A stretch of 64,000 nucleotides of DNA from an uncultured Bacteroidales bacterium (GTDB lineage: Bacteria; Bacteroidota; Bacteroidia; Bacteroidales; BM520), in assembly GCA_964594665.1 (NCBI GenBank), contig CAZQNY010000001.1, positions 77,030 to 141,029 of the forward strand. The letters are read 5' to 3'. The stretch's first letter is position 1; each line of letters begins with the position of its first letter. Position numbers and translations under genes: made by a program. Under the pieces are notes generated by a model. The model was not told the origin of the DNA. It saw nothing but the letters and a program-made list of their open reading frames with translations, and ran no database searches. Of the stretch, positions 1-19,960 are shown piece by piece.

Positions 1-2379
1 TGATATTTCATTCTTCTGCAGGGATATCTCTTTAGTCCTTTTCTTAACAATAGCCTCCAGGTTATCCTTTTCCCGTTGTAATTGCCTGGCACGCCATTTC
101 ACAAATAAATATACCAGAAATATTCCGGCCACCACAAGAGCAATATAAAATGCAAGCGTATTATACCACTCCGGTATTATACGAAATGAAATCATTGCTT
201 CATCACTGATAACCCCGCTGCTGTCCTTCGACTTAACGTGAAATGTATATTGTCCTTTGGGTAAATTACTATATGTTGTAAAAACCTGTGATGTGAAAGC
301 TGTCGGGTATTCATCTCTCCCTTCTAAAAAAGTGGAATACAAAACATCTTGCTCCCGGGTGAACAGGGGAGTGGAATAATAAATCTTCACATCACTCTGA
401 TGCGCCCGTAATTCATACGGATTATGGTCAGGTGACAGATTTCCGCCATTAAAAATCAAACTGTCATTGGATAAAATGCATTTTCGTATATAACATTTCT
501 GTCGATTACCCTCATTCACCGTTTCGGAGGTGTGAATAATAATTTCATTACCTCCCCCTAAAAAGGTTATCCCTGATTCAGCATAAACTGTCTTGATAAT
601 TTTGTTTTCTATAGGTACAAAACGATTCGGATACCCTTTCCATATGGAATCATGACGAACAATATACTGTGCATGTGTTTGATCACCTGCCACTATCCAG
701 ATTGTATCAGGGGTGCTGTTGTAAATACTGCTGATCCAGAAGTCTGAAAGCCATGCACTATCCGATTGTACTGATAATTGATAAAGCTGAAAGCTATTGC
801 TCTCAATATCATATTTATAAACCCCCTGAGGTGTGCTTATATAATACTTTCCTTCGAAAATAAATGCCTTTATCCCGGCAGTGTTTGGTATCCCTGACGG
901 GTTAGATATTGGTGTCAGAGTGTTATTATCCAAAATTTTAAAAATGCTGATATTATCAGATGTACTTTTCGTAATAACAATATTCGAAATACCGCATATT
1001 ATGTCTGCTATTTCTTCATTATCAGAATATTGCAGCTCTATAGCGGATAATTTATTATTTATAATGGAATAAGTTAACAATCCGTTTTCCGTTCCAAGGA
1101 GTAAAACCTTGTCACCGTATATTGCCACTGATAATGAAAAATACCCATTCTCCTTGATTATATTCCCTTGTTCAATATTTAATAAACCAGTAGATGTTGC
1201 AACATACAGATGTCCCCCGTGTTCCACCATGTCCCAACAGGCCATATTTATATCTTTAACAGGAATAAAAGACTTCAGAATGGTATCAAAGCGAAATAAG
1301 CCCTGATAGGTAGCAGCATAATATTCGCCCTGATATTTGGTGATTTTATTTACAATACCTTCAAGCCCTGAACCTTCTGCAAGATACCTGAACGGAGATG
1401 AAATATTTACCGAACAAATACCATTGTCAAGCACGCACCACAAAAGGCCTTTATCTTCAATGATCTTAACCACACCATTGTCGCCTAATCCTTTTTGTCG
1501 GGTTAATTTGTTGGTAATAACACCCTTATTTAAATCAATAAACAGCAAACCGTTTCGAAGAGTACCAAGAACAAGCTCTCCTGATGATGTAATAAGACCA
1601 TCTGAAATAACATATCTTTTCAACTGATCGTTTAATGTTTTGGCAAGAGGTCTGCATTTTCCGCCTTTATCAAACAGCCAAAGCCCCTGACGCGATGTGC
1701 CCAAAATGTATCCATCACGATAAACATTAAAAAACGAATATGTCGTTGCAGCAGGAAGGAGGTCTGTTGGAATAATCCGGTCCGTTTTGCCATTCTCAAG
1801 AACAAATAAGCCTTCCTGATTTATGGAAAGATAAATGTTGCCATTCGCAAGGAAAGCTTTGCTGATAGTGCCTTCAATAATGAATTTATCAGTCAGCTCT
1901 CTGTTTTCTATAGTAAAAACAGTATTCTTTGTTATATAGTAAGTCTTATCTCCGGATACAAAAATCTGTATCACTTCATTATTAGCCTCTGAGTTGTCAG
2001 AAAACAGATTCAGGGATTGGTATTCAGCCCCAAATTCATTCCGGATAATAATGCCTGCTTCTCCGATTCCTCCCACAAAAACGCCCTGGTCATGCGCATA
2101 GGCAATTGCAGTTGCCCTCATGCCCGCATCTGTTTCATACAACTGCCAGGAATTACCATCATATTCGATCGGGCCGGCGAAGTTTGCAAGATAAAGAAAA
2201 TCCCTGTCGTCAAAGCAAAGATCAAAGTTCTGATTATGCGCATGGTAGTCGGCAGGGCCATAATAGGATATGAAAGGTGTTCCGGCAAGGAAAACATCCT
2301 TTGCGTTCTGCCCTGATACAGTTTTCAGACTCAAAAGCCCGAATATCAAAATGACCCATAAAATCTCTTTTTTTGTCAT
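1..2379 (-). CDS. Membrane sensor protein whose C-terminus lies beyond the window edge: signal peptide, two-component-regulator-type beta-propeller repeats, Y_Y_Y-like domain, single TM, coiled coil
   Basis: My own minus-strand translation from the ATG at 2379-2377 gives MTKKEILWVILIFGLLSLKTVSGQNAKDVFLAGTPF... The frame stays open to base 1, so it is absent from the ORF track. The last readable residues are ...IPEWYNTLAFYIALVVAGIFLVYLFVKWRARQLQREKDNLEAIVKKRTKEISLQKNEIS, a TM followed by a coiled coil, as in Bacteroidota propeller/Y_Y_Y sensors. The output domain is off-window. There is an ATGA start/stop overlap with the upstream ORF. Confidence 0.7.
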   Translation of the reverse strand, partial: MTKKEILWVILIFGLLSLKTVSGQNAKDVFLAGTPFISYYGPADYHAHNQNFDLCFDDRDFLYLANFAGPIEYDGNSWQLYETDAGMRATAIAYAHDQGVFVGGIGEAGIIIRNEFGAEYQSLNLFSDNSEANNEVIQIFVSGDKTYYITKNTVFTIENRELTDKFIIEGTISKAFLANGNIYLSINQEGLFVLENGKTDRIIPTDLLPAATTYSFFNVYRDGYILGTSRQGLWLFDKGGKCRPLAKTLNDQLKRYVISDGLITSSGELVLGTLRNGLLFIDLNKGVITNKLTRQKGLGDNGVVKIIEDKGLLWCVLDNGICSVNISSPFRYLAEGSGLEGIVNKITKYQGEYYAATYQGLFRFDTILKSFIPVKDINMACWDMVEHGGHLYVATSTGLLNIEQGNIIKENGYFSLSVAIYGDKVLLLGTENGLLTYSIINNKLSAIELQYSDNEEIADIICGISNIVITKSTSDNISIFKILDNNTLTPISNPSGIPNTAGIKAFIFEGKYYISTPQGVYKYDIESNSFQLYQLSVQSDSAWLSDFWISSIYNSTPDTIWIVAGDQTHAQYIVRHDSIWKGYPNRFVPIENKIIKTVYAESGITFLGGGNEIIIHTSETVNEGNRQKCYIRKCILSNDSLIFNGGNLSPDHNPYELRAHQSDVKIYYSTPLFTREQDVLYSTFLEGRDEYPTAFTSQVFTTYSNLPKGQYTFHVKSKDSSGVISDEAMISFRIIPEWYNTLAFYIALVVAGIFLVYLFVKWRARQLQREKDNLEAIVKKRTKEISLQKNEIS

Positions 2380-5300
2380 GGGGTCTCCGGTTTAAAATAA
2401 AACGAATTTATTGCTTCCATCACCACCGGCCTGTTTGTAGCAAAATTATCAAAAACCGTGGTGTTAAAAATAATAAGCTTAGTTACTGATGGGAATTTAA
2501 AGATCAATGATTCCTCGGCGTTACGCACTGTACTCATGAAAAATCCATTGGGGGCAACATCCAAATAACCGGTACTTGTTACTTTTCCGGATATAACAAA
2601 CCCGTATGCTCTTTTCGAATTTATTGTTGTTGAATCGCCTTCTGAATAACCCTTTCTTACAGATGTTTCAAGTAACTCTTCCATTGCAAAAACAGGAATC
2701 AGGGAAGAATGAAAAGCCGTTGAAACTATCCGAAAGGCATCAAGAAGTAATATTGAGTCCTGAGCATTGATCCGGGAATCAATCTTGTCCTGCCATGCTT
2801 TCGGTAATAGTTCCCTTTTGTGTTTAAATACTTCAGGGTAATATTTGTACAACTGCAGGGTTGCATATTCTGCAACAACGTTTTCAGGATGAAGAAAATT
2901 ACTGATTAACAAGTTTTTATATGAATCGCCCGGGGGATACACAGCCAGTGCTTCGGCCCGTGTATATCCTGACACGGTTTTACCACGTGCATTTATCAAT
3001 TGTTCCATAGCTTCTGTGGCTGATTGCCTCTGATAAAAATAGGGCTCCATATTAGGAGTGAATCTTTTACCAAAGCAATAATTGTCAATTAATGGCATTA
3101 AGAATTCTATGTCGCTTTTGGTGAATATTAAATTCATCATTTCAACAACATACATTTTTGATGCTGAATTACTGTCTTCAATAATATTTGCAATAACAGC
3201 AACAGTGTTTTTATCATAAATTGTGCTTAATAATGCAAAAATGAAATGCATCCGCGAATTGATATCTGTCTTAAGCGTATGTGATAAGTGTATATTCTCA
3301 TCAGAAATTGATTCCATTTCATTTTCAACAGCCATTAAAAAGAATAGGTTTCTGCACTCTGATTCAAACTCCGCATGAAATGATTCCCGGGCACTATTGC
3401 TAATGATTAAGTTGCTTCCGGAAATAATTTCCATCAGCGCTTCTTTTCCATAATAACGACAACTAAAAAACAGTTTTTCAATCAATTCACTTTGCTCATT
3501 CGTGAAATTATGATTTCCGGATAATGCAATTCTGATGGCACCAGGGAGCCTGTCGTTGTGTTGCTTGGCAAGAATACTTTTCAATAAGGAGGTGATGCCT
3601 GAATCTCCATACTGTTTGATAGCGTGTAAACTAAAATTCCTCAGATCCGTCGAAAAAACATTCTGTAAAATTCCCGGAAGAAGCGGAAGCCTGCCAGTTT
3701 TTCCGGCTGCCAGAATACATTCCATTTTTATCTCCTGATCGTCAGACTTCAACAAGTCATTTAAAGCACTATAAGCATTATAATCAAACACCTCCACAAG
3801 TAAAGCAACAGACTGAAGCAGGTCGTTTTTATCTGTTTGTGGTATACGTTTGCGATTATTAAACATCGCGACAACATCTTTATCTGCGGTACCATTGTTT
3901 TTATTGTGGATAAAATCCAAATACGCAATTTTCAGAGGAACCTGCAAACCCGCAGAAATAGCTCCCTGACAAAAGTCCTTATGCTGTGATTCAGGGAGTT
4001 TCACCACGATGGCTGAAAATGAATATGGATTGGTATTGATAATTAAAGCGCCCATATGAAAGAGTATCCTGTCATTATTCGCCTTTATATATGGATTCTT
4101 TGAAAGTACCTTTTCTTCATTCTTGTGTGATTGGGAAAAAAGCTTGTCTTTTACTTTTAATGTGTATTGATGAAAGGTCTTCCGGGAAAGAAAAAACCAG
4201 CCTGTAACAGTTAAAATAAAGAACAGAGTAAGGTGTATAGATGACAGATTTTTGACAGAGGTAAAAAGAATAATAATTAACGCACTGAATATCACTGCAA
4301 ATGTTTTGGAATATCCTTCAATAATGGCCTGTGCCGAGGGCCGCACGTTTTTATCAAGTGGTTGATAAAGAATCTGATATGCCGGGTCATTGATACCGGA
4401 ACGAAGAACCCGTTCAAGGAGTTTTACCAATGCGATAAGTGAGAAAAACAAGCTTCCTGTACCGGAAACTATTCCTACTACTGCCGCCATGGAAAGAACG
4501 ATTAAAAATACAACTGAACTCACTGACAAACTGAATATTAACCCGTAGCGATTCATCATCTTTCCGGATAGCAATGCTTTTGTGATCAGTTCCACCACTG
4601 CACTAAATCCAAAAAATACTCCAAAAAAACCAGCTAATACATCCGCATCATGGAATTTTGCTTTTGATAAATCAAGGAAGATAAAATCAGCAAGATACAT
4701 GACGATAACAGGAACAAAAGCCAGTATAAACATGTATTTAAAATACGTTGTCCTGATAATTTTTTTTGATGAAGATTCGGAACGTTCCCCCTGTTTACGT
4801 TCCTGACCGGAGTTTTCAATTTTGAAGGTCAGAAAGAGACAGAAAAACATACTTGCCGCTGCAATAAACAGTAAATCCTGTGTTTGTAGCACTTTAATAA
4901 GTAAAGGTATAGAGAAGAAACCTATCATACTCGAGATTACTTCTCCGGAAGTAATGAGACCAAACAGACGCTTGCCCTGGTCGAGAGTGAAGGCTCTGTT
5001 CGCCATTGTCCAGAAACCTATTATCGTGATAAATGCAACTACCCTGTACCATACATAGTTCACAAAAATCAACCATCGCGGGGCATTGATATCTACTACC
5101 AATCCCAGCAGAACCATCGAAAGTATTAATAAACTGTTAGAGGTAAGAATGGTATTTCGTACCGAGGTTTTTTTTAACAGCGACTGAAAAAGCAGACTTA
5201 CAGGAATCCCAATACCACCCATGGCCAGATACGCATAGGGTATAATGCTGCTGGGAAAGATTGCAACCAACAAGGCGCTGGAAGAGGTGTAGAACATTGC

Positions 5301-5411
5301 ATTGGTTGTTCCGACAAAAAAAGAATACAACAATAGTAACATCACTGTTTTTCTCTCAGTGGAGGAAACGCCAAATGGCTTCAACAAGAGGTTACTATCT
5401 TTTAAAATCAT
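2376..5411 (-). CDS. TLC/Npt-family (ATP:ADP antiporter-like) nucleotide-transporter membrane domain fused to HEAT repeats and a degenerate cNMP-binding-like C-terminal domain
   Basis: 1011-aa ORF. The first ~430 aa contain about 12 hydrophobic helices with TLC-type signatures (FWTMANRAFTLDQGKRLFGLITSGEVISSMIG; PAYQILYQPLDKNVRPSAQAIIEG). The middle has HEAT/PBS-lyase-like repeats (LLKSDDQEIKMECILAAGKTGRLPLLPGILQNV). The last ~120 aa look like a cNMP-binding beta-barrel (VFAMEELLETSVRKGYSEGDSTTINSKRAYGFVISGKV), but I cannot see the FGE / R[ST]A phosphate-binding cassette. Confidence 0.65.
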   Translation of the reverse strand: MILKDSNLLLKPFGVSSTERKTVMLLLLYSFFVGTTNAMFYTSSSALLVAIFPSSIIPYAYLAMGGIGIPVSLLFQSLLKKTSVRNTILTSNSLLILSMVLLGLVVDINAPRWLIFVNYVWYRVVAFITIIGFWTMANRAFTLDQGKRLFGLITSGEVISSMIGFFSIPLLIKVLQTQDLLFIAAASMFFCLFLTFKIENSGQERKQGERSESSSKKIIRTTYFKYMFILAFVPVIVMYLADFIFLDLSKAKFHDADVLAGFFGVFFGFSAVVELITKALLSGKMMNRYGLIFSLSVSSVVFLIVLSMAAVVGIVSGTGSLFFSLIALVKLLERVLRSGINDPAYQILYQPLDKNVRPSAQAIIEGYSKTFAVIFSALIIILFTSVKNLSSIHLTLFFILTVTGWFFLSRKTFHQYTLKVKDKLFSQSHKNEEKVLSKNPYIKANNDRILFHMGALIINTNPYSFSAIVVKLPESQHKDFCQGAISAGLQVPLKIAYLDFIHNKNNGTADKDVVAMFNNRKRIPQTDKNDLLQSVALLVEVFDYNAYSALNDLLKSDDQEIKMECILAAGKTGRLPLLPGILQNVFSTDLRNFSLHAIKQYGDSGITSLLKSILAKQHNDRLPGAIRIALSGNHNFTNEQSELIEKLFFSCRYYGKEALMEIISGSNLIISNSARESFHAEFESECRNLFFLMAVENEMESISDENIHLSHTLKTDINSRMHFIFALLSTIYDKNTVAVIANIIEDSNSASKMYVVEMMNLIFTKSDIEFLMPLIDNYCFGKRFTPNMEPYFYQRQSATEAMEQLINARGKTVSGYTRAEALAVYPPGDSYKNLLISNFLHPENVVAEYATLQLYKYYPEVFKHKRELLPKAWQDKIDSRINAQDSILLLDAFRIVSTAFHSSLIPVFAMEELLETSVRKGYSEGDSTTINSKRAYGFVISGKVTSTGYLDVAPNGFFMSTVRNAEESLIFKFPSVTKLIIFNTTVFDNFATNRPVVMEAINSFYFKPETP

Positions 5412-5412: not shown

Positions 5413-6237
5413 CTATTTCTCTATCAACTGATCGTATGGAATTGCAAGGAATGAATGATCGTAATGTCCCTCTTTACGACGTAAATAGGCTGCAATACGA
5501 AAGTCCTCTTCTATGTACATTTTCTGAATTGTGTCCAGATCATTATAGCTTACAATCTGATAATGAACGTTTTGTTTATGCGTTTTAATAAACTCAGCAA
5601 CTTTGACTTTATCCAATCTGTTTAAAATAAACCCCCTGGGAGAGAGTACCATAAATTCATCAAAGCTTGGTTCCCAGTTTTTGTATTGATGGAAGGTTTC
5701 AAAAAACCATCCCATATTATTGAGTTGATTATTAATGCTTGGGAAATTTGAATGACCGATAAGCCCCCTCTGCGTTTTCGAGCCTGTCTCCATGGAAATG
5801 AGCGCAGAAAATGTTAACAATATAAGGGCAAGTCCTTTACCACGAATGTTTTTATGTAAGGCAAAGCGTGTCCCTAAGGCAACATTGCCCCTTGTGCTGT
5901 ATTGTACATGAAATATCGTTCCCATGATATGTCCTTTTTTATCACAAATCAACATACCGTGGCCATAGGTTATACATTTATACAATTCAAAAAAAGTAAC
6001 ATTTGTTGGCATCCCCGATTCTTCATAGCAATCAGCAATCAAAGGGATAAGTTCCTCTATATCACTAAAATCAGCGAGTTTAAAGTGAAGTTCGTGTCTG
6101 GAAAGTTCTTCAATACATTTTTTCTTATAAACAGCCAAAAACTCTGAATCGGTGTATTCCAGTACTTTTCGCTCCTCAACTGTCAAGGTCTTGCATAAAT
6201 ATTCCGGTTTTCTGTATTTCGATAGATCAATAATCAT
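5413..6237 (-). CDS. GNAT-family N-acetyltransferase with a C-terminal extension of about 90 aa
   Basis: 274-aa ORF with ATG at 6237. It has a GNAT motif-A-like HKNIRGKGLALILLTFSAL preceded by GHIMGTIFHVQYS. There is a 1-nt gap to the downstream ORF and a 6-nt gap to the upstream ORF. Confidence 0.6.
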   Translation of the reverse strand: MIIDLSKYRKPEYLCKTLTVEERKVLEYTDSEFLAVYKKKCIEELSRHELHFKLADFSDIEELIPLIADCYEESGMPTNVTFFELYKCITYGHGMLICDKKGHIMGTIFHVQYSTRGNVALGTRFALHKNIRGKGLALILLTFSALISMETGSKTQRGLIGHSNFPSINNQLNNMGWFFETFHQYKNWEPSFDEFMVLSPRGFILNRLDKVKVAEFIKTHKQNVHYQIVSYNDLDTIQKMYIEEDFRIAAYLRRKEGHYDHSFLAIPYDQLIEK

Positions 6238-6243: not shown

Positions 6244-8880
6244 CTATTTAAAATTGTATAGTACACGGATTAAAAAATTACGCTTCAGCTGCGGCGTGCG
6301 ATATGCATAAAAGACTCCATCTGCTGAGCGGACTCCGGGGTCAGCATATTCCGTATTTAAAATGTTATTACACCGCAGTTGGATATCGAGGCCATTAACA
6401 GGACTTACCCATGTCGCAGTTGCATTTAACAGAGCTACGGCAGGAAATTCACCCGGATTTGCTACTACAGAAGTGCCTTCTCCTACAGGCCTTTCTCCAA
6501 TAAAATTAACACGTGTATTTATATTTAACTGATCGAAAAGCACCACATTAACACCAAAATTTGCATGATGGGAGGCTATGTCGCCAATTCGCTGATATTC
6601 TCCGGTCAAAACACCGTCCTCCAGTTTATTATTTAAAGGATGACAATAGGTGTAATTGGCATAAACATTTGCATGTTCAAATTGGTAACGGATATTCGCC
6701 TGAATACCACTAATTTGCAACTCGCCAATGGCCTGGTGTTGCTGTGTTAAGCCTCCTTCATAAGGAACAAGAGCCGTTCCGACAACTCCATCATATTCAG
6801 AACGATAAACTTGCAAGTCAGCATAAAATGCTTTTGAAGGATGATATGCAGCACTTAATTCAAGGTTTTTAACTTCCTCCGGCAATAAAGTCGGGTTATT
6901 CAGCTGCCGAATATCTGAAGTGGAATATTTTGTCCAGTTGCTTGCATTTTGAAAGGCTTCAGAATATATGGCCTTAAAAACAAATTTGCCGGGCATGGCA
7001 ACAACTGCGACTCTCGGGTTAAACTGAAAACCATAACCACCGGTGACCCTGATTCTATTGTAATCATATCGTCCACCAAAGGTAAAGAGAACCTTGTCCC
7101 AGGCTTTATAGGTTGCCTGTGCATATATCCCAATGTCATTAACAGTAAAATAATTTCCTCCCGGAGAAGCGCTCTCAGCAGATATTCCCGACTCAACAAT
7201 ACTGGTGGTGTATTCAGATAGATCGCCAAGAAATAATGACTGGTAGTTTCCCTGCAAAACAGTATTCCTGTATTCCAAACCCGCAACCATATTAAACACA
7301 TCCGATGAATATGTCACTTTCAACTCATTACGAAACTGACGGTTGATCACGTAATCGAGACGGGTAGTCCAATATGGTGAAACTGAATCTGCAAGCGAAG
7401 ATGACGATAACCCTCCGTTGGCATAATTCGTTAACCAAATATACGACGATCCGTCAGAAACTTTTGTGATTCGGTATTGAGCAAGATTTGACAAACTGAC
7501 ATGATCTGTAATATCTTTATTGTATTGAGTATAAAAGAAATACTGCTCCGGAATCCAAAATAACTGATTATCAGCACCACATTGCAGATTATCAGTAAAA
7601 TAATTTGTGCTCCCGTTTTTAGCTTTCCACCATTGCATCCCGGCACTAAAATCTCCAATACTAAGTTTTGTATAGGAATAATAGTTATCTATCAAATTTG
7701 AGTAATGTACCGGCGAACCATTTACTGTTTCATTAATCGATGCCTGATCGTATTCCCTTGCTGTCTGTGCTCCAAGTTCAGTAAGTCTTGCTGCAACTGT
7801 ATCACCGGCAGTATTTGTTTCAATATGAAAATACGGGTTATCTGATCCTATATTATTCTCTTTAACAAAATCACCAGCATTGTTGGTTACCGATAATAAA
7901 GAATAGTAATCAACAGCATTATAATCGTCCGGGCTGAAATTGTATTCATCAAAAGAGGATAAATCCCTGTCGGTAGAAGTATATTTTCGAAAAGATGTAG
8001 AGATTGTCAGTTTTTTAAACCTTCCGGCAACAGTAATATCGGTAAACCATGTATTTGCCGAACCAATACCAGCATCTGCTGACACAGCAACAGGGGAGTT
8101 GATTTCAAGGTAATCTCCGGGATCTTTGGTAATAATATTGATAACCCCTGCAAGCGCATTGGCTCCATACATTGTCGAGGCGGGACCATAAATAATCTCT
8201 ATCCGTTTAACCATACTTACCGGATACTGAACACCCCAATACGCAATATTCGACCATAAATCGTTTTCCTCAACGCCATCAACCAAAAACAAGGTCCGGT
8301 CCGTATTACGGCTTCTGTAACCACGTTGATAAATATTACTGTATGTTGCGCCCCTGGTTCTGCTAACATCAAAGCCGGGTAAATCTGAAAAAACAGCATC
8401 CAGATCCGTATACCCTCTGGTTTTTATCTCTTCTGCTGTTACAACAATCACTGTGGCAGGAGTTTCGTTGGAATTCTCAGCCTTCTTGGAAACAGAAACA
8501 ACCTGCTGGGAATAACCTAATTTCTTCAGAATATCAATCATCGTGATAAAACGGGGAGGGTCAAAGTAATTGGCTTCAAAGTTTGGTTTTAACTGAATGA
8601 TACGATCAGCAGTGTTATATGCCTTTTCTATCGAATCTGTGGCAAGGTAACAAAGCGTCATTATTCTGTATGCTTCTATCTTCTCATTATATGAAAAACC
8701 ATCAGCCATGCAATTGTTTATAATATCAGTGGCTTCAAGAAATAATCCAAGATTATATTTCTTCTGTGCTTCATTAAGCGTAAACGAACCACACTGCTGC
8801 CCTGTTGCAGCTTCCCAACATAGCACAAACAGCAAAATTGCCAATACCGATTTTAAATAGATATATTTATTGTTTTTCAT
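6244..8880 (-). CDS. TonB-dependent outer-membrane receptor with a TPR-like N-terminal extension
   Basis: 878-aa ORF. Signal peptide MKNNKYIYLKSVLAILLFVLCWEAATGQ. TonB box and plug (ETPATVIVVTAEEIKTRGYTDLDAVFSDLPGF; RIEIIYGPASTMYGANALAGVINIITK). Long beta-barrel ending LIRVLYNFK. About 100 helical TPR-like residues sit between the signal peptide and the TonB box. Confidence 0.85.
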   Translation of the reverse strand: MKNNKYIYLKSVLAILLFVLCWEAATGQQCGSFTLNEAQKKYNLGLFLEATDIINNCMADGFSYNEKIEAYRIMTLCYLATDSIEKAYNTADRIIQLKPNFEANYFDPPRFITMIDILKKLGYSQQVVSVSKKAENSNETPATVIVVTAEEIKTRGYTDLDAVFSDLPGFDVSRTRGATYSNIYQRGYRSRNTDRTLFLVDGVEENDLWSNIAYWGVQYPVSMVKRIEIIYGPASTMYGANALAGVINIITKDPGDYLEINSPVAVSADAGIGSANTWFTDITVAGRFKKLTISTSFRKYTSTDRDLSSFDEYNFSPDDYNAVDYYSLLSVTNNAGDFVKENNIGSDNPYFHIETNTAGDTVAARLTELGAQTAREYDQASINETVNGSPVHYSNLIDNYYSYTKLSIGDFSAGMQWWKAKNGSTNYFTDNLQCGADNQLFWIPEQYFFYTQYNKDITDHVSLSNLAQYRITKVSDGSSYIWLTNYANGGLSSSSLADSVSPYWTTRLDYVINRQFRNELKVTYSSDVFNMVAGLEYRNTVLQGNYQSLFLGDLSEYTTSIVESGISAESASPGGNYFTVNDIGIYAQATYKAWDKVLFTFGGRYDYNRIRVTGGYGFQFNPRVAVVAMPGKFVFKAIYSEAFQNASNWTKYSTSDIRQLNNPTLLPEEVKNLELSAAYHPSKAFYADLQVYRSEYDGVVGTALVPYEGGLTQQHQAIGELQISGIQANIRYQFEHANVYANYTYCHPLNNKLEDGVLTGEYQRIGDIASHHANFGVNVVLFDQLNINTRVNFIGERPVGEGTSVVANPGEFPAVALLNATATWVSPVNGLDIQLRCNNILNTEYADPGVRSADGVFYAYRTPQLKRNFLIRVLYNFK

Positions 8881-11800
8881 ATTTTTCAGAAATCGTTCTC
8901 ACCACAGGGATGTCTTCTCCAAGATATTCGTTCCACTCTTCTGAAGTTAATTCCCGTTTAATATCATGCTTTATTTTTTTTGCTAATTCTTCTATATCTA
9001 CAGACTGAATAATTATGTTTCTATCCAGTCCTCCGCTAATAATTTTTTTATGTCCTGAATCATATGCCAAAGAAGTAACCCATCCGTCATGATTCTGTAT
9101 TATAACAGGTTGTGATTCCGGGTTCTGTGTGTTCCGGATTTTAATGGTGTTATCTAAACTTCCGGTGGCAAGGTATTTTCCCTGATGAATATATTGGATA
9201 GATGTCACCCGGGAAATATGTGAATCGATTTTTACAGGCTCCGACGATGATGAAGCGCCAAGAAAAACTAATGTGCCATCCTCATAACCTATGGATAAAC
9301 TATTGGTAACAGAATCACAACCAATTGCAGATACAGGCTTCATTACCTTATTATAAAGGTCCTCCACTTCCATTTTAAATGGATCAAAGCGTAAAAACGA
9401 ACCATTATCCAGACCGATAAGATATGCGCTGTGGCAGGTTTTAATAGCAGTGACGTCCGAGTCAAAAGAGTAGAGCAGGGCAGGAGCACTCTCCTGATTT
9501 TGGCTCCATGAATAAATTGCTTTCCCTCCATTAGTAAAAACAATATTATTTTTATCGTCGTACAGAACTTTATTAACCGGATTACCATTAGGTAATGTAA
9601 AAGACGTAACTTCCTGTGTACCATTGTCTATAACAATAATTCCTCCATCTACAGTACCCAGACAGGACGTATTTTCATCATCAGAAATCGCAAAACTTTT
9701 AATATCATAGTACTGCCGGGGGCTGAATACTGTGGTGAGTTGCTCTATTCCCTTTTCGCCAATTTTCCATTTGGCAATAGTACCATCCTTACTGCATGAA
9801 TAAAAAAATGATGATTTCTTCTGGCTGATAGCTACAATTTGATCAGGATGATTTCTTAAAAAGGTTATATTCTTTGAAATATTTGATAATGCATTAAAAA
9901 TATCCGGATCGTAGGGTAGTCCTCCGTTTTCTTTATTTAACCTGTAGGATTGAAGAGCGAGAAGTCGGGGCAAATCATCACTTTGTGATTTATTCATCTG
10001 GTTGGCTTTAACAGAAAGTGCTTTTGCCAATGATAACATCCGCAGTTTAAAGGCCTTTTCTTCATTTTTCTCAGCTATGGTGCGCTGTTCATTTGCAATA
10101 ATTGTTTGCTCAACCGCCTTGGAACGCTGCATATCAGCTTCATCACGGGCAATAATGGCCTCTTTTTGGGAGGCGAGAGCTTTTTCCCGTTCAGTCTCAG
10201 CAATTACTGTTTGACGTTCCGCCACATGTTGTTGCGACAAGGCATATTCACGTTGTGCTTCAGTGATAAGTTTTTGTTGATTGGAAATTTCCCGTTGCTG
10301 ATCGGAAATCCGTGTTTGAATAATTGCCTGTTTCCTTTGTTGCTCTGCCTTTTCTTTTTCAGCCAAAGCAAGATGCTCATTTTCCCGGGCAAGGGCTGCT
10401 GAAGCCTCAGCCTCAAATCTGAGATTCAGCGAAAAGACCAGAAATAATATGGATATCAACGAGGCAAAGCCCAGAAAAACAGAAGTATACCGTGCTCTTC
10501 GTAAATTTCTCTTTTGGCGCTCCTTTTCCAGCATTATCTTTGTATTAAATGCTTGGGAACTTATCTCCAAAAAGTTCATGGCATTCTCAAAAGAAGCATT
10601 GATACGTTCTCCCCAACAGGCATTTGGCTTCATCTTGTCGCGCCATGCCAGGGCAAGATTTAACTCCGGATTCACCCATAAACCACCTTCCCCCTGCTGA
10701 TATAATTGAGCTGAAGCAACCAGGCGTAAATATACGTCTACAGAAGAGCGCTCCTCAAGAACCCATTCGTTTAAACGGCCCCAGATCCGCATGATGCTTT
10801 CATGTGAAATATTAATTGCAGTATCCTCGTTTATCGATACCTGGTAGGGTGGCATCAAAAAAGCACATTCCGGGACTCTGAATTTGTTGATTACTTCCAA
10901 TAGGGTCTGATAATCAGTATTGCATAAATTTATAAGCTCATGTACCGTTGCTGACCTGCGGGTATTTTTTCCGTCATTTGGGTTTACGAGACTCCTGAAA
11001 ACCATACCGGCAATACGCTTTGATTTTTCGTCAGGTAAAGAATTATACACTTCTTCAGCGTGTTGGTTTAATGCAGAGGATACTGTTCCAATTGCCTGAT
11101 AATGAACCTGTGAAATGGGTTCATTATTGGAGCTGTTTCGTTGCCAGTATTCCCACGTTCTCATCAACGCATGTTGCAGTACAGGAAGCTGGTCTTTTTT
11201 TTCCGATACCTCATTTAATAAGATATCAACAAGGTTCTCATCAATCGCCGCTCCAAAATATTCTATGGGTCCTTTGATCGCCGCTCGTTGCTCTTCGCGG
11301 GTCATCTCCGGAACCAAATAGTAACTCTGATTAATAAGATCGTTGAATTCACGGAAATGAGTGCACTCATCAAGGAAGTCTGTGCGCATTGACACAATTG
11401 TTTTTAATGGAATGACATCCTGTTTTTGAGCCTCAATGATATGATTAATAAATGTTGAGTTTCTTTTCTGACTATTCTTGCCGGTGTAACTGAATAATTC
11501 CTCAAATTGGTCAATAATTAAAAATATTCTCTGGGTAGAATTAAACAAAGATTGAATGAATCTCGAAAATGTGCCGTCTTCCTTAGTAAGCAAATCCTGT
11601 AAATTGACTGTTTCTTTGTCAGAAAAACTTTTTGTCGATTTAGAAATAAAGGCATTTACCAGTTCATTTAAAGGATCATTGCCTGGTTTAAATAGTATTG
11701 TAATCCACTCTTCAGCACTATTCATTTCTGGAATGATTCCCGCATTTATCAATGATGATTTTCCGCATCCACTGGCTCCGCTCACAATTACAAAGTTATG

Positions 11801-11920
11801 AGTTGCAAGCATTTCCTTTAATATTGCAACCTGTTTTTTGCGACCATAAAAATACGATGACTCATTTACTGAGTAACTGCGGATTCCCGGGAATGGATTT
11901 AAAGTATTTTTTATTGACAT
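8867..11920 (-). CDS. STAND P-loop NTPase (nSTAND/NACHT-like) - single TM - long coiled coil - WD40 beta-propeller
   Basis: 1017-aa ORF. N-terminus NPFPGIRSYSVNESSYFYGRKKQ. Walker A VSGASGCGKSS, Walker B LIIDQFEELF, then LPVLQHALMRTW and ISHESIMRIWGRLNEWV, which are motifs typical of WD40-linked STAND NTPases. The basic stretch KERQKRNLRRAR is followed by the hydrophobic helix VFLGFASLISILFLVFSLNL. A Q/E/A/R-rich heptad region of ~150 aa follows. The C-terminus has WD40-like blades (SKDGTIAKWKI, GSLDNTIKIRN, GGLDRNIIIQS). It overlaps the downstream receptor gene by 14 nt. Confidence 0.8.
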   Translation of the reverse strand: MSIKNTLNPFPGIRSYSVNESSYFYGRKKQVAILKEMLATHNFVIVSGASGCGKSSLINAGIIPEMNSAEEWITILFKPGNDPLNELVNAFISKSTKSFSDKETVNLQDLLTKEDGTFSRFIQSLFNSTQRIFLIIDQFEELFSYTGKNSQKRNSTFINHIIEAQKQDVIPLKTIVSMRTDFLDECTHFREFNDLINQSYYLVPEMTREEQRAAIKGPIEYFGAAIDENLVDILLNEVSEKKDQLPVLQHALMRTWEYWQRNSSNNEPISQVHYQAIGTVSSALNQHAEEVYNSLPDEKSKRIAGMVFRSLVNPNDGKNTRRSATVHELINLCNTDYQTLLEVINKFRVPECAFLMPPYQVSINEDTAINISHESIMRIWGRLNEWVLEERSSVDVYLRLVASAQLYQQGEGGLWVNPELNLALAWRDKMKPNACWGERINASFENAMNFLEISSQAFNTKIMLEKERQKRNLRRARYTSVFLGFASLISILFLVFSLNLRFEAEASAALARENEHLALAEKEKAEQQRKQAIIQTRISDQQREISNQQKLITEAQREYALSQQHVAERQTVIAETEREKALASQKEAIIARDEADMQRSKAVEQTIIANEQRTIAEKNEEKAFKLRMLSLAKALSVKANQMNKSQSDDLPRLLALQSYRLNKENGGLPYDPDIFNALSNISKNITFLRNHPDQIVAISQKKSSFFYSCSKDGTIAKWKIGEKGIEQLTTVFSPRQYYDIKSFAISDDENTSCLGTVDGGIIVIDNGTQEVTSFTLPNGNPVNKVLYDDKNNIVFTNGGKAIYSWSQNQESAPALLYSFDSDVTAIKTCHSAYLIGLDNGSFLRFDPFKMEVEDLYNKVMKPVSAIGCDSVTNSLSIGYEDGTLVFLGASSSSEPVKIDSHISRVTSIQYIHQGKYLATGSLDNTIKIRNTQNPESQPVIIQNHDGWVTSLAYDSGHKKIISGGLDRNIIIQSVDIEELAKKIKHDIKRELTSEEWNEYLGEDIPVVRTISEKYEKQ

Positions 11921-12104: not shown

Positions 12105-15100
12105 ATGAATAAAATAGTAAAATTTATTGGCTCTTTAAAATTAGCCGGTATTATATTAATAGTATTATCTGTAGTATTGGCTTTTGCAACATTTATTGAG
12201 AATGATTTTGGTGCTTTGCATGCAAAAAATGTAGTTTACAATACATGGTGGTTCGAGGTGCTTTTGTTTATTCTTGCAATTAACCTCATAGGGTCAATAT
12301 TTTATCTTAAACTGTTTTCAGGTAAAAAATACTCAAGAATAGTCTTTCATATCGCATTTGTATTTATTCTTGCAGGAGGATTCTTTACCAAGCACCTTGC
12401 CATGGAAGGAATGATGCATATCCGGGAAGGTGACTGCTCAGCTGAAGTATTAATGGATCAATCCACTCTTTCCATTGAACTGCAATCTCAGAATTTTAGC
12501 GTCTCTAAATCCTATCCTGCAAATGTTAATGACTTTCAAAAAATCGATGAAATAGACCTCTCTTCAGTAGGAAAAACAAAAATTGACATCTATCATTACC
12601 CTGTTCCTAATGTACCGGTTATTTATGACTCCGAATCAGGAGAACCCACACTGGTCATTATGTTCGCTTCAAAATATCGCTCATTCGCTCTTGGTTTTGT
12701 TGAAGGACAAACAATGATTCTGGATGGCACTGAGATTGGTTTTAATACCGGTTCAGACCAGGGATTGCAATTCATCTACGAAAAAGATTCTCTCTCAATA
12801 GTTTATACCAATGATCTGAGTGTTCGACACATGATGGGAGATGGGGGAGAAGGCATGCTGTTGAAAAAAAATATCCGTCACCCTTTGACGTCATACGCCA
12901 TATATGAAACTGAAGATTTTCGGTTTGTCCTGACTGATTTTAATGCCAACGGAATAATTCGTTATGAACAGGAAAACAGCCCGCAACAAGCTGCTCCTGA
13001 AATGTTATTGGTTGTACAATCCCCCCAGCAGGTTTTATTCTTCCCTGTTCCAAAGTCTGAAGTTGCAATGGATCCAAATGTTTTTATATATAATGATATG
13101 AAAATTAAAGCCACATGGCAGCCGGCAACACTTTCATTGCCTTTCTCTGTCTGTCTGGAAAATTTTCACATAGAACGTTATCCCGGCTCGCAAAGCCCTT
13201 CAGAATACCGGAGTATGGTTACTCTTGACGATCAAAACAAAAATGTCTCCTTCCCATTTGAAATATATATGAATAATATCCTTAAATATAATGGCTATCG
13301 GTTTTATCAGAGTTCCTTTGATCAGGATGAAAAAGGAACAATTTTATCGGTGCGAAAAGACAGAATAGGGACTACACTTACCTATATCGGTTATTTTTTG
13401 ATGATATTTGGTATGCTATGGGCTCTGGTTGATAAAAAAAGCCGTTTCAGAACGCAGCTTAAATCACTGGCATCACAAAAAACCGTAAAAGCTATTCTTT
13501 TTATTGCATTAATTTTCAGTGGAATAACTGTTGCTGCACAGGAAAAGACCATAACCCCTGATAAAGATATTGCCAACCAATTCGGAAAGCTACAGGTATT
13601 GGGCGCTAATGGCCGTCTGATGCCCGTTAATACTCTCACCGATGAAGTATTACGAACCCTCTATGGCAAAAACCATTATAATGGTATGACTTCTGACCAG
13701 GTGATCCTTTCCATGATTGCAAATCCTCAAACATGGATGAATCAGAAAATTCTTAAAGTAAAATTTGAAGATCTTAAACAACGCCTGGGCCTTAATGCTT
13801 CATATGCCTCATTTAATGATATCGTTGATTCTGAAACAGGTAATTACAGACTTAGCAAGGATATAGAAGACGCCTACAATAAAAAAGCCAATTACCGGAC
13901 AAAATACGATCGTGAGGTAATAAAAATTGATGAAAGACTCAATGTGCTTTACCTGATTCTTACCAATCGCTATATAAAACTATATCCGGTAGAGCAGGAG
14001 GGTAGCTCGGTATGGCTCGCATCTTCACATAATCTGACAGGATTATCGCAGCATGATTCCATTTATATTGCCAACACAGAGTCAGAACTGGCAGAAGCAC
14101 TGATGAGCAGAAACAGTGTCAGGGCAACAACCATACTTGAAGACATTAAGCAATTTCAGGTTGCCAATGCCGGATCGGATATTATACCCGAAAGAAAAAT
14201 TAATGCAGAGATATTTTCCAACAAGGTGGATGTATTTAACCGTTTATGGCGCTTTTACAGCCTTTTTGGTTTTTTTATGATTATCGTTTTTATAGTAAAT
14301 GTTGCAAAGCCATTCAAACGGTATAGCTGGATGAGTAAAGTAGGTTTTATTCACCTGGCAGTAGCTTTTGCTATTCATACCGGAGCACTTGGATTACGAT
14401 GGTATATCTCCGGGCATGCTCCCTGGAGTAATGGTTATGAATCTCTCGTTTTTATGGCCTGGTCGGCAATGCTTGCCGGTATATTGTTTTATAAACGTGA
14501 GCCATTTGCACTTTGGTCCACATCAGTGCTGACCGCTATGGTACTAATGGTTGCTCATCTGTCATGGATGAATCCCCAGATATCAAACCTGGTTCCGGTG
14601 CTGAAATCAGTATGGCTGACAATACATGTCTCGGTGATCACCTCAAGTTATGGATTTCTCGGGCTCTCAGCCATTATTGGCTTGTCGGCAATTATCCTTC
14701 AGATTGCTTCAGGTACTACCGTTAAAACGAATATCGACAATGCCATAAACAGATTAACGACCATATCAGAGGTGATTATGATCCCCGGACTATATATGCT
14801 CACAATCGGGACTTTCCTCGGAGCTATTTGGGCAAATGTTTCATGGGGAAGATATTGGGGCTGGGATCCAAAAGAAACATGGGCGCTAATTACAATTTTT
14901 GTTTATTCCTTTGTGATTCATATGAAATATATTCCCGGCCTTAAAAGCAGGTATATCTTCAATGTAATGTCGGTGGTGGCCTTTTTTAGTATTTTAATGA
15001 CCTATTTTGGTGTGAATTATTATTTATCAGGGCTCCATAGCTATGCAGGAGGAGATCCGGTACCAATACCTGTTTGGCTATATTTTGCGATTGGTGGGCT

Positions 15101-15173
15101 TGTTGTACTGTTTGTGACAGGAAATTATATGCATAATGCGTCTAAAAAGAATATTAAACCAGGCAGAAAATAG
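12105..15173 (+). CDS. ccsBA: Fused cytochrome c biogenesis protein CcsBA (ResB-like N-terminal part plus CcsA haem-handling part)
   Basis: 1022-aa ORF. The N-terminal part has TM helices and a large soluble loop (GYRFYQSSFDQDEKGTILSV). The C-terminal polytopic part carries the WWD motif WGRYWGWDPKETWALITIF. Confidence 0.85.
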   Translation: MNKIVKFIGSLKLAGIILIVLSVVLAFATFIENDFGALHAKNVVYNTWWFEVLLFILAINLIGSIFYLKLFSGKKYSRIVFHIAFVFILAGGFFTKHLAMEGMMHIREGDCSAEVLMDQSTLSIELQSQNFSVSKSYPANVNDFQKIDEIDLSSVGKTKIDIYHYPVPNVPVIYDSESGEPTLVIMFASKYRSFALGFVEGQTMILDGTEIGFNTGSDQGLQFIYEKDSLSIVYTNDLSVRHMMGDGGEGMLLKKNIRHPLTSYAIYETEDFRFVLTDFNANGIIRYEQENSPQQAAPEMLLVVQSPQQVLFFPVPKSEVAMDPNVFIYNDMKIKATWQPATLSLPFSVCLENFHIERYPGSQSPSEYRSMVTLDDQNKNVSFPFEIYMNNILKYNGYRFYQSSFDQDEKGTILSVRKDRIGTTLTYIGYFLMIFGMLWALVDKKSRFRTQLKSLASQKTVKAILFIALIFSGITVAAQEKTITPDKDIANQFGKLQVLGANGRLMPVNTLTDEVLRTLYGKNHYNGMTSDQVILSMIANPQTWMNQKILKVKFEDLKQRLGLNASYASFNDIVDSETGNYRLSKDIEDAYNKKANYRTKYDREVIKIDERLNVLYLILTNRYIKLYPVEQEGSSVWLASSHNLTGLSQHDSIYIANTESELAEALMSRNSVRATTILEDIKQFQVANAGSDIIPERKINAEIFSNKVDVFNRLWRFYSLFGFFMIIVFIVNVAKPFKRYSWMSKVGFIHLAVAFAIHTGALGLRWYISGHAPWSNGYESLVFMAWSAMLAGILFYKREPFALWSTSVLTAMVLMVAHLSWMNPQISNLVPVLKSVWLTIHVSVITSSYGFLGLSAIIGLSAIILQIASGTTVKTNIDNAINRLTTISEVIMIPGLYMLTIGTFLGAIWANVSWGRYWGWDPKETWALITIFVYSFVIHMKYIPGLKSRYIFNVMSVVAFFSILMTYFGVNYYLSGLHSYAGGDPVPIPVWLYFAIGGLVVLFVTGNYMHNASKKNIKPGRK

Positions 15174-18256: not shown

Positions 18257-19216
18257 ATGGAGATATATCCCGTTTTTCATCAGATTTTGCTGCTCTTTAT
18301 TATGATTGCTGCAGGATTCACAGGTGGCAAAACAAGAATCCTGGGCAAAGGGTCGGACGATGTAATCGCCAAACTTGTATTCAATATCACGTTACCCTGT
18401 TTGCTTCTTACGTCAATAACCGGAATGGATATGACTCCGGAAATATGGAAAAACGGTATTGGGGTAATTATCTTTTCTGCCTTGATCCATGGTTTGCAGA
18501 TGCTGATTGGATATACCAGCTCCAGAATATTGAAACTTTCTGAAAGAAAATCAGTTATCCATATAATCCACACCTTTAAAGGGAATACTATTTTCATTGG
18601 CTTTCCTTTACTTGATGCACTGTTTCCCGGTGGAGAAGGCCTCTTATATGCTGCCCTTTATAACTTTGCAAGTAATATTATTATGTGGACCATAGGTGTA
18701 ATGTTTCTGGATAAGAGCCATAAAAAACATCCTTTGGATAACCTGAAAAAGCTCATAAATATCAATACCATTGCATTATTGATTGGCCTTGGTTTTTTGA
18801 TTGCAGGGGTCAGCTTCCCTGATATTATTACCGGAAGCATCGGCCGGCTCGGGTCTGCAACTTCACCATTGGCTATGATATTTATCGGCCTTAAATTCTC
18901 AGAAATTCGTTTTAAAAGTATTGTGACCGACAAATCGGCATGGGTTTATAGTTTTAATAAACTGTTATTTGTACCCATGATTTCCGGGTTATTAATTTTT
19001 CTGGCGGGAAATATTCCATTTTTTCAGATTAGCGACACTGCAAGGATGTGTGTGCTTATGCAGGCATCAACACCTGGATTTGCCATGATGATGATTATTT
19101 CCAGGATTTACAATGCAGACACCGACACAGCTGTTAAAAATTTCTTTTTAAGTACACTACTAAGCATCTTTTCATTACCGCTGGTGTATGTCATCCTTGA
19201 ATTACTTTATTTCTAA
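18257..19216 (+). CDS. AEC-family (auxin efflux carrier type) transporter
   Basis: Polytopic membrane ORF. The likely start is the internal ATG giving MEIYPVFHQILLLFIMIAAGFTGGKTRILGKGSDDVIAKLVFNITLPCLLL, a typical AEC N-terminus. Confidence 0.75.
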   Translation: MEIYPVFHQILLLFIMIAAGFTGGKTRILGKGSDDVIAKLVFNITLPCLLLTSITGMDMTPEIWKNGIGVIIFSALIHGLQMLIGYTSSRILKLSERKSVIHIIHTFKGNTIFIGFPLLDALFPGGEGLLYAALYNFASNIIMWTIGVMFLDKSHKKHPLDNLKKLININTIALLIGLGFLIAGVSFPDIITGSIGRLGSATSPLAMIFIGLKFSEIRFKSIVTDKSAWVYSFNKLLFVPMISGLLIFLAGNIPFFQISDTARMCVLMQASTPGFAMMMIISRIYNADTDTAVKNFFLSTLLSIFSLPLVYVILELLYF

Positions 19217-19713
19217 CAATGACATAAATTCTGAATTTTATAAAGTAGGGCATGTCTCAAATAATAAACTTAACATAATACAAATTATCGGACAAATATA
19301 TAGCGGGTAAACACTGGTAATCAGCGTGTTATATTTTGTTGTAAAAAAATAGTAAACTAAATTTGTATTATGAAAGAAATTAAGCTGATTCAGTACAACT
19401 TACCGGATAATACATCCGTCTACACAAAAAGACGTCAATTCTCAATCACTTTGGCCTGGGACGGACAGACAAAGTATTTCCATTCAAAAATCAAATGTTG
19501 GCACCGATAAAGTAGGTATCAGCAAACATAATGATCACAATCACCAGTGGAATCCTTACCAGTGTGTGAATGCTTTTCAATGATGCGGCTGTAAACTTCA
19601 TAGTAAATTTTCGTTTTTGAGTTACAAGGACAGGACAGTGGAATCATATGGGTTGGCTATTTCTTGCAATTCCTTGCGATTTTCCACGATAGCACCGATT
19701 ATTGAAAAAGTTG

Positions 19714-19721
19714 TATTTTTG
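19714..19721 (+). promoter_or_regulatory. Bacteroidota -7 promoter box (TAttTTTG) upstream of the toxin-antitoxin pair
   Basis: tatttttg lies 25 nt upstream of the antitoxin ATG (19747) and matches TAnnTTTG. I did not find a clear -33 TTG at the canonical spacing. Confidence 0.35.
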
Positions 19722-19746
19722 TAGGGAACAAAAAAAAGAGGCAATC

Positions 19747-19959: not shown

Positions 19960-19960
19960 G

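Follow-up and report, generated by a model that had tools for sequence, protein, structure and literature searches.

A predicted inner-membrane STAND NTPase with a heptad-repeat stalk and a periplasmic WD40 propeller, genetically linked to outer-membrane barrels in Bacteroidota

To our knowledge, all mechanistically characterized STAND/NLR proteins (Apaf-1, NLRs, plant R proteins, MalT, Avs and bNACHT) sense their ligand in the compartment in which their own NTPase resides. The described proteins nearest to the one reported here are the nSTAND1 conflict NTPases (Kaur, Burroughs, Iyer & Aravind, eLife 2020, 2021), which share with it the NTPase family, an Arg/Lys (RK)-rich cluster followed by a transmembrane (TM) helix, and C-terminal sensors of the WD40, TPR or SBP kind. 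On the strength of sequence only, bacterial STANDs with a TM helix have been proposed to sense signals in the periplasm or outside the cell (Kaur et al. 2020, PMC7159879), a proposal also made by others (Kibby et al. 2022 preprint; PMC10907252); neither the NTPase family nor the concept of a STAND with a TM helix is new. Here we describe a 1,017-residue member of this family, encoded in a 64,000-nucleotide stretch of DNA from an uncultured Bacteroidales bacterium (GenBank assembly GCA_964594665.1, contig CAZQNY010000001.1, positions 77,030 to 141,029), which we call the window. Its gene (minus strand, 8867..11920) encodes an nSTAND1 NTPase module, a TM helix, a stalk and a WD40 propeller, and it is the first gene of a tightly packed minus-strand operon. 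An identical copy of the protein (P0001) is present in public metagenome data.

The subfamily to which the window protein belongs differs from the nSTAND1 conflict NTPases in several respects. The conflict NTPases carry an N-terminal caspase, trypsin, CHAT, TIR or HTH domain, whereas the window subfamily has no effector. Its stalk is far longer, at 110-159 residues, and is quantized in heptads; it is obligately accompanied by an outer-membrane (OM) barrel with an added periplasmic domain and is linked to a transporter of the MFS type with HEAT repeats; and it forms a syntenic operon across one phylum, whereas the conflict systems occur as patchy islands. In the literature that we searched, we found no description of the effector-less Bacteroidota subfamily, its heptad-quantized stalk, the N-terminal domain (NTD) on its OM barrels or its conserved operons. 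There is a substantial chance that these proteins represent a new class of trans-envelope transducer.

A first-pass annotation of the window, made from its letters alone, had called the protein a STAND NTPase without a fused effector, and Pfam bears this out. PF20703 (nSTAND1) matches the protein with 300.1 bits (cutoff 27.1, E=4.7e-89), with residues 9-410 (10691..11896) aligned to positions 1-374 of the 379-position model. The Walker A motif VSGASGCGKSS lies at residues 46-56 (nt 11753-11785), where the core GASGCGKSS (residues 48-56) fits GxxxxGK[ST]; the Walker B motif LIIDQFEELF lies at residues 134-143 (nt 11492-11521), where LIIDQFEE (residues 134-141) fits the pattern hhhhD followed by acidic residues. 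The two conserved helices reported earlier are also present, LPVLQHALMRTW at residues 245-256 and ISHESIMRIWGRLNEWV at residues 371-387. When 44 homologs are aligned, the NTPase residues that do not vary are G48, G51, G53, K54, S55, D137, E140, E141, R179, P218 and H250. Among the invariant positions, R179, G217-P218 and H250 may correspond to the sensor-1 Arg, the GxP motif and the winged-helix-domain His, and the preservation of these residues together with Walker A and B is consistent with an active switch. Because the nSTAND1 match begins at residue 9, only eight residues stand ahead of the module, as they do in all close homologs (1011-1088 aa), and there is nothing N-terminal to it that could be a fused effector; specifically, Pfam finds in this protein none of the N-terminal effectors or adaptors typical of conflict-system nSTAND1 members.

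A search of PDB sequences with the NTPase module returned no chain with detectable similarity. We also built an AlphaFold2 (AF2) model from 44 homologs (mean predicted local distance difference test score, pLDDT, 81), which consists, from N- to C-terminus, of a compact NTPase region, one helix spanning residues 444-645, two short linker helices, a propeller and a helical tail. Foldseek aligns the whole model to full-length Apaf-1 (3shf, 3sfz) over more than 1060 columns. Apaf-1 resembles the window protein in joining a nucleotide-binding oligomerization module to a WD40 sensor, but it is a soluble protein of the cytosol that carries a CARD effector at its N-terminus, has two propellers rather than one, and contains neither a TM helix nor a stalk.

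Following the NTPase module is a conserved helical juxtamembrane region (residues 411-480, 10481..10690, defined by the alignment and the AF2 model), in which W415, P418, W426, P432, W436 and R439 are invariant across the 44 homologs. At its end, a basic cluster, KERQKRNLRRAR (residues 466-477), precedes the hydrophobic helix VFLGFASLISILFLVFSLNL (residues 481-500, 10421..10480), as the first-pass annotation had noted. Hydropathy and conservation both mark this helix as the single TM segment: its mean Kyte-Doolittle (KD) value over 19 residues is 2.41, compared with 1.23 for the runner-up segment in the protein, and all of the 120 close homologs retain it at the same position, where the motif RNLKRAR..AIILGIASVISILFLIISLNLRFKAEAS is near-invariant. 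The helix is 20 residues long in 84 of 84 aligned family members, and its KD value is at least 1.9 in 143 of the 146 best full-length representatives (50% identity), the remaining three scoring 1.86-1.89 at the same site. The charge distribution is strongly asymmetric, with seven K/R residues among the 15 N-terminal of the helix and two C-terminal of it; the corresponding family means are about 6.1-6.6 and about 2.6-3.3.

These are the sequence features of a bitopic N-in/C-out (type II) protein: one helix of about 20 residues, a positive-inside bias and no cleavable signal peptide. The helix had been claimed to span the membrane rather than to be buried, and the AF2 model agrees, placing it within an exposed, continuous helix of 202 residues with nothing to bury it. 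The NTPase module is predicted to be cytoplasmic because it needs nucleotide and because the protein has no signal peptide. The stalk and propeller very probably lie in the periplasm because of the single conserved TM helix, the charge bias, the extracytoplasmic domains found after the same helix in relatives and the obligate secreted OM partner. An N-in/C-out protein with periplasmic stalk and propeller is thus supported as the sole reasonable in silico reading, in keeping with the topology predicted at first pass.

The architecture had also been presented as unusual; it is not peculiar to this gene, because a TM helix after the NTPase module is a feature of the nSTAND1 clade. We sampled 11 distant nSTAND1 proteins from plasmids of Streptomyces, Rhodococcus, Pseudonocardia, cyanobacteria, Rhizobium, Caballeronia and Deinococcus (phyla Actinomycetota, Cyanobacteriota, Pseudomonadota and Deinococcota), all bearing N-termini of the classical kind (caspase, trypsin, CHAT, TIR or HTH). 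In 10 of the 11, an Arg/Lys cluster and then a hydrophobic 19-mer (KD 2.0-2.8) come right after the NTPase module. Counted among these ten is a Deinococcus sp. NW-56 plasmid system (L096 3493-8075) in which nSTAND1 is split over two adjoining genes, the first encoding a protein kinase and the NTPase module and the second the RK-rich cluster and TM helix, then repeats. On a Streptomyces sp. NBC_00257 plasmid (L091 3691-6792), a caspase, nSTAND1 and a TM helix are followed by SBP_bac_3, which is an extracellular solute-binding domain, and the family representative P0264 has a PPC pre-peptidase domain C-terminal of its TM helix. The TM helix in 10 of 11 relatives, together with SBP_bac_3 or PPC beyond it, suggests that the N-in/C-out arrangement is a property of the nSTAND1 clade. 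The Streptomyces protein agrees with what Kaur et al. 2020 (PMC7159879) noted on STANDs with a TM helix plus PBP domains.

Beyond the membrane, residues 501-645 (9986..10420) form a predicted periplasmic stalk of 145 residues with a strict Ala-centered heptad repeat, identified from its periodicity and the AF2 model. The 7-residue spacing is far above chance: over residues 501-660, hydropathy power at period 7.0 is 102, compared with 10.7 ± 10.6 in shuffled sequences, and not one of the 2000 shuffles gave so high a value. The same segment contains no Gly and one Pro. The 3.5-residue harmonic over these residues is not significant (power 10.9 versus 10.1 in shuffles), and hydrophobic residues do not occupy the a and d positions in the manner of a canonical coiled coil. 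Instead, the repeat unit is x-x-[IVLY]-A-x-x-Q, with Ala at each seventh residue. In a heptad profile of 120 homologs, one position is 81% Ala (otherwise Thr or Ser) with hydrophobic residues flanking it, the third position after it is 51% Gln, and the next is 67% Arg or Lys; in the 44-sequence alignment, Ala is invariant at each seventh residue from A560 to A616. Thus, of the earlier claim of a heptad stalk, the strict spacing stands, but the repeat presents a stripe of Ala, Gln and Arg rather than a hydrophobic a/d core. The monomer structure prediction suggested in the first-pass annotation gives one straight, uninterrupted helix over residues 444-645, TM segment included, and on this sequence pattern a coiled-coil stalk is plausible. 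We also considered an antiparallel Alacoil hairpin, which would return the propeller to the vicinity of the inner membrane; this is unlikely, as the AF2 helix is straight, there is no Gly/Pro break and the heptad phase is continuous.

Stalk length varies across the family in a highly restricted way. Taking alignment columns of 84 family members, with residues 501-645 of the window protein as reference, we found that proteins paired with a TonB-dependent receptor (TBDR) have stalks of 138 (one protein), 144 (one), 145 (13), 152 (four) or 159 residues (four), whereas those paired with a small barrel have stalks of 130/131 (42), 137/138 (eight), 116 (two), 109 (one) or 144/145 residues (two). Length therefore tracks partner type, at 145-159 residues mostly with TBDRs and mostly 131 residues with small barrels. 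In the 33 proteins in which an invariant LR[ML]L motif could be used as an anchor, the distance from the start of the TM helix to this motif is congruent to 5 modulo 7 in every case (110, 117, 131, 138, 145 or 152 residues). Stalk length therefore changes by whole heptads only, which keeps the rotational phase between membrane and propeller. At about 0.15 nm per residue, the estimated span is roughly 16-24 nm in the family and about 22 nm in the window protein; stalk, linker and propeller together are comparable in span to published distances between the inner and outer membranes of Gram-negative bacteria.

Other envelope proteins offer partial parallels to this rod. TonB and TolA are likewise anchored in the inner membrane at their N-terminus and extend through a rod of about 20 nm to a globular domain close to the OM; however, the window protein has a large cytoplasmic NTPase in place of the proton-motive-force motor ExbBD or TolQR, its rod is a heptad helix rather than Pro-rich or Lys/Ala-rich, and its distal domain is a WD40 propeller. 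The Ala-rich heptad is also reminiscent of Lpp, whose trimeric alanine zipper sets envelope spacing.

The stalk is joined to the propeller by a helical linker (residues 646-684, 9869..9985; AF2 helices 650-664 and 672-682) with conserved DDLP...LALQ...NGG...DPDIF motifs. The WD40-like blades reported in the first-pass annotation are matched by Pfam WD40 families (residues ~690-1000) and form, in the AF2 model, a seven-bladed propeller with pLDDT of about 85-94 (residues 685-973, 9002..9868), predicted to be periplasmic. The protein therefore ends, as STAND-class proteins do, in a superstructure-forming repeat sensor, and the top Foldseek matches of the STAND model are G-beta propellers. After the propeller comes a conserved C-terminal tail (residues 974-1017, 8870..9001; AF2 helices 976-986 and 993-999) in which R989, E995, W996, G1001 and D1003 are invariant among 44 homologs. 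PknD of M. tuberculosis and the Reg_prop/Y_Y_Y hybrid sensors of Bacteroides likewise link a cytoplasmic signaling enzyme through one TM helix to a beta-propeller sensor outside the cytoplasm, and a Y_Y_Y kinase of this extracytoplasmic-propeller kind is encoded in the window operon itself. These sensors signal by a kinase, whereas the window protein would do so by a STAND switch, with a long stalk separating propeller from membrane.

The gene that follows (minus strand, 6244..8880) starts within the STAND gene, its start overlapping the STAND stop codon with 14 nt shared, and encodes an 878-residue TonB-dependent receptor with Pfam Plug (residues 138-246) and TonB_dep_Rec_b-barrel matches. 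Between its signal peptide (8800..8880) and the plug, this receptor carries an extra periplasmic domain (residues 28-125, 8506..8799; recognized from the AF2 model and our own hidden Markov model, HMM), followed by a conserved TonB-box-like motif, QVVSVSKK. The domain matches no Pfam family at E<=1, and so by Pfam it is not STN/Secretin_TonB_N. Its AF2 model is all-helical and TPR-like, with five helices and pLDDT >90 over residues 40-120; Cys30 and Cys57 lie at opposite ends of the first hairpin, and this Cys pair and one Gly (C3, C30 and G18 in the numbering of our alignment A2) are invariant. Foldseek comparison of the NTD with the PDB gave weak matches only, to peptide-binding TPR domains (E >= 0.04).

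We fetched 84 loci of the family. Homolog searches with the window NTD as query retrieved an identical fragment only, and a 33-sequence profile retrieved 16 short fragments, the search index missing this fast-diverging domain; tblastn showed, at many loci, a weak match to receptor residues ~5-115 only, immediately downstream of the STAND gene. NTD statistics were therefore taken with our own HMM over the fetched loci. The domain was found in the gene directly after STAND, behind a signal peptide, in 80 of the 82 loci with sufficient sequence, which are spread over Bacteroidota, the gap between the two genes being -67 to +230 nt; L020 and L039 are the two loci in which no downstream NTD gene was detectable. 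It is fused to a TonB-dependent receptor in 23 loci and to an OMP_b-brl_2 barrel of ~350 residues in 55. Because it sits on either barrel type, the constant element of the partner is a periplasmic NTD on an OM anchor, not transport. As an idea only, the tail of the STAND protein might be a docking peptide for this domain, because the tail is strongly conserved and the NTD resembles peptide-binding TPR domains.

The pair of STAND and receptor genes is reminiscent of FecA-FecR-FecI. There too, a receptor has an extra periplasmic domain N-terminal of the TonB box and plug, and an adjacent, co-transcribed gene encodes a single-pass N-in/C-out protein whose periplasmic C-terminus could contact that extension. 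There are also differences. The FecA extension has the STN/Secretin_TonB_N fold, whereas the window receptor has a TPR-like domain with a Cys pair; the inner-membrane partner in the Fec system is an anti-sigma factor, whereas here it is a STAND NTPase in an operon without an extracytoplasmic-function (ECF) sigma factor; and, unlike in Fec, the NTD is found mostly on a small, non-TonB barrel.

We favor, with a probability of roughly 0.55, a model in which the STAND protein and the OM barrel form a trans-envelope signaling device similar in layout to FecA/FecR. An inner-membrane-anchored STAND switch ATPase, with its nSTAND1 module (residues 9-410) in the cytoplasm, would reach across the periplasm. 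Its TM helix (residues 481-500) would run unbroken into a rigid 145-residue stalk, about 21-22 nm long and likely to be a homo-oligomeric coiled coil, which would hold the WD40 propeller near the inner face of the OM. There, the propeller or the tail would dock on the disulfide-stapled, TPR-like NTD of ~100 residues at the N-terminus of the co-translated OM barrel; docking of the distal end on the NTD is the most economical model because the NTD on an OM anchor is the constant feature of the partner. A change in the OM protein, such as ligand occupancy, TonB action or envelope geometry, would alter the binding or clustering of propellers, and the in-register stalk and TM helix would pass this change inward, shifting the nucleotide state and oligomerization of the STAND module. 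We favor outside-in signaling because STAND modules are switches that act through induced oligomerization. As the subfamily has no fused effector, the output would be read by co-encoded cytoplasmic partners, most likely the HEAT-repeat part of the MFS/TLC-like transporter, with the Y_Y_Y kinase or partner-switching proteins as alternatives; in the small-barrel operons, a weakly TIR/DUF4062-like protein encoded upstream is a further candidate. Domain composition, conservation, gene linkage and the heptad-quantized stalk are read directly from the sequences; the topology (on strong grounds), the physical contact between propeller and NTD, the direction of the signal and the nature of the output are what we infer.

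Several observations weigh against this model. The contact between propeller and NTD is proposed from gene linkage and geometry, and when identity within and between partner classes was compared over the 84 family members, the propeller was no more class-specific than the NTPase module; that is, it showed no specific co-evolution signal. A propeller of ~4.5 nm must pass, or fold beyond, the peptidoglycan layer. STANDs are usually activated by direct ligand binding, with autoinhibition released within one polypeptide, and the TBDR-type operons contain neither a sigma/anti-sigma pair nor an obvious effector. How the stalk oligomerizes and how rigid it is are uncertain, because small or polar residues (Ala, Gln and Arg) make up its heptad core and AF2 confidence is low, with pLDDT just 45-50 over residues 499-570; scores this low are common when a lone helix is modeled as a monomer.

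Other explanations of the same features can be considered. OM barrels are common phage receptors, and the protein could be a conflict STAND whose periplasmic propeller detects invader components, such as the tail or ejection proteins of phages or else bacteriocins, that enter via the adjacent barrel, and whose NTPase module then triggers a separate effector. Counter-invader systems are where the nSTAND1 clade was defined (PMC8195603), distant relatives bear caspase, trypsin, CHAT or TIR effectors, one copy of the operon lies on a Runella plasmid, and a gene with weak TIR_2/DUF4062 matches stands just upstream of STAND in 43 small-barrel loci. However, these TIR and DUF4062 matches fall below or near the Pfam thresholds, and the window operon has no effector of any kind. 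No component of either operon type, the TIR-like neighbor included, matched a defense model in PADLOC-DB v2, where the sole trace was a sub-threshold mad8 match of the STAND protein (E=0.0037). The neighboring genes encode a transporter and a histidine kinase or belong to partner-switching systems, and the operon is syntenic over four Bacteroidota orders at 30-40% full-length identity and with fixed lengths, a pattern closer to vertical, housekeeping inheritance than to a patchy, fast-turnover defense island. We consider a role in conflict unlikely on balance.

We regard it as less likely still that the protein is a structural tether or ruler holding the barrel over the MFS/TLC-like transporter as an uptake route, or an NTP-driven coupler akin to TonB/TolA. 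Such a role would account for a stalk that is length-quantized, partner-specific and, at ~20-24 nm, comparable to the width of the periplasm, for the transporter in 66 of 83 loci and the TonB-dependent receptor in the window's class, and for an order of N-terminal TM anchor, rod and C-terminal globular domain that parallels TonB and TolA. Yet STAND modules are established as slow switches rather than motors; the receptor retains its TonB-box-like motif and so probably still uses TonB; 55 of 83 loci have the small OMP_b-brl_2 barrel, an improbable transporter; and the gene for the MFS/TLC-like protein lies upstream or downstream according to class, with 17 loci lacking it in the fetched region. 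A whole protein in the cytoplasm, as in characterized STANDs, with the hydrophobic helix buried or peripheral, is very improbable. The low AF2 confidence around residues 499-570 would agree with it, but the segment has KD values of 2.4-2.9, K/R residues clustered on a single side and a length of exactly 20 residues in all 84 aligned proteins; moreover, the exposed 202-residue helix has nothing to bury it, SBP_bac_3 or PPC follows the same helix in relatives, and linkage to a secreted OM partner is obligate.

If the trans-envelope signaling model is true, the window protein would belong to the first STANDs shown to sense outside the cytoplasm and would be the first NLR-type module for envelope or nutrient signaling, rather than for immunity or transcription. 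A sensor beyond a membrane and a 20-nm rod poses the problem of how one TM helix can couple the binding of a ligand to nucleotide exchange and oligomerization, and would extend the NLR paradigm to transmembrane signaling. The whole-heptad, partner-specific stalk offers a natural experiment on periplasmic distance and helical phase as information. The family is tractable, with cultured Dyadobacter, Mucilaginibacter, Fulvivirga, Flammeovirga, Marivirga and Runella and an identifiable OM partner. Several thousand proteins annotated as "hypothetical" or "WD40 repeat" gain a context, and an unannotated periplasmic domain is defined on TonB-dependent receptors and OMP_b-brl_2 barrels. More tentatively, and at somewhat less than even odds, Bacteroidota may possess a phylum-wide class of transducers in which a STAND (NLR-like) switch takes the place of an anti-sigma factor or TonB-type partner, a heptad ruler spans the periplasm, the propeller contacts the NTD, and events at the OM are converted into NLR-like oligomerization.

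The family is large. More than 3000 proteins match the window protein at E<=1e-10, and the best 120 of these are full-length (1011-1088 aa), 37-41% identical to it (one 65%) and all from metagenome-assembled genomes (MAGs) of Bacteroidota. A search of 1.84 billion representatives with residues 1-520 gave 44,185 matches at E<=1e-3, of which 8,755 reached E<=1e-30. When one genome per species was scanned, the family was found in at least 593 species genomes, in the orders Bacteroidales, Cytophagales, Chitinophagales and Sphingobacteriales, with cultured carriers in Dyadobacter, Larkinella, Sediminibacterium, Mucilaginibacter, Fulvivirga, Flammeovirga, Marivirga and Chryseosolibacter; the carriers also include a small number of MAGs from Acidobacteriota and Chloroflexota. 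Existing annotation calls these proteins "hypothetical" or "WD40 repeat" proteins.

The remainder of the window operon lies on the same strand. After the receptor comes a GNAT-like open reading frame (ORF) of 274 residues (5413..6237; weak Acetyltransf_1 match, E=8e-4), in what appears to be a variable acyl/formyl-transferase slot: between the receptor and transporter genes, L001 and L003 have a formyltransferase-like gene product of ~295 residues, Runella has a GNAT protein of 195 residues, and in L002 the slot is empty. The next gene (2376..5411) encodes the MFS/TLC-like transporter, a 1011-residue protein with ~10-12 TM helices and a soluble HEAT-repeat region of ~600 residues (Pfam MFS_1 and HEAT_2). 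Its homolog in L011 also matches, weakly, the TLC and NTP/NDP exchanger family, and a PDB search with the soluble part found HEAT-like artificial repeat proteins only. Clustering of the flanking ORFs showed the protein to co-occur in 66 of 83 loci. The last gene (1..2379), cut by the window edge, is an open frame for the first 793 residues of the Reg_prop/Y_Y_Y sensor histidine kinase, with a signal peptide, a periplasmic domain and a TM helix (residues 742-760); its ATG overlaps the stop codon of the preceding gene. In L001-L003, among other loci, the corresponding place in the operon is taken by a full-length homologous kinase.

Gene order is conserved around homologs that are only about 40% identical (the whole order in L001-L004, and the STAND-receptor order in L001-L010 and others). 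The Runella rosea plasmid NZ_CP030852.1 (L090) has the same order as the window operon, and RefSeq names its genes hypothetical protein, TonB-dependent receptor, GNAT, MFS transporter and sensor histidine kinase. Genes for a cognate anti-sigma factor and an ECF sigma factor were found in none of the window operon, L001-L004 and L090. Partner-switching genes (STAS/anti-sigma antagonist, RsbW-like ATP-binding protein and SpoIIE/PP2C phosphatase) adjoin the operon in several loci, specifically at L001 6593-9884, L090 5522-8941 and L011 6599-8611.

The small-barrel operons have a different set of neighbors. In 43 loci, a protein of ~460-480 residues with weak matches to TIR_2, DUF4062 and FxsC-N (TIR-like) is encoded just upstream of STAND (for example, L011 8614-9987 and L074 8520-9965) and might serve as an effector or adaptor encoded apart from STAND. 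The window operon has no such gene. Also found are a HAMP-SpoIIE membrane phosphatase (23 loci), a beta-propeller-like lipoprotein of ~400 residues (47 loci) and a giant protein of more than 2000 residues (14 loci). In L017, a Sporocytophaga MAG, the gene for the NTD and small barrel seems to be split by a frameshift (13003-13575 and 13400-14080), and a few kb downstream of it lie ORFs (18312-20902) that by eye resemble the phage tail sheath and tube of a contractile injection system.

Upstream of the window STAND gene is an AT-rich spacer of 184 bp, in which the Bacteroidetes-type promoter TAnnTTTG was not found. Across this spacer, and divergent from the STAND operon, is a plus-strand gene (12105..15173) whose 1022-residue product is a fusion of the ResB-like and CcsB domains of cytochrome c biogenesis system II.

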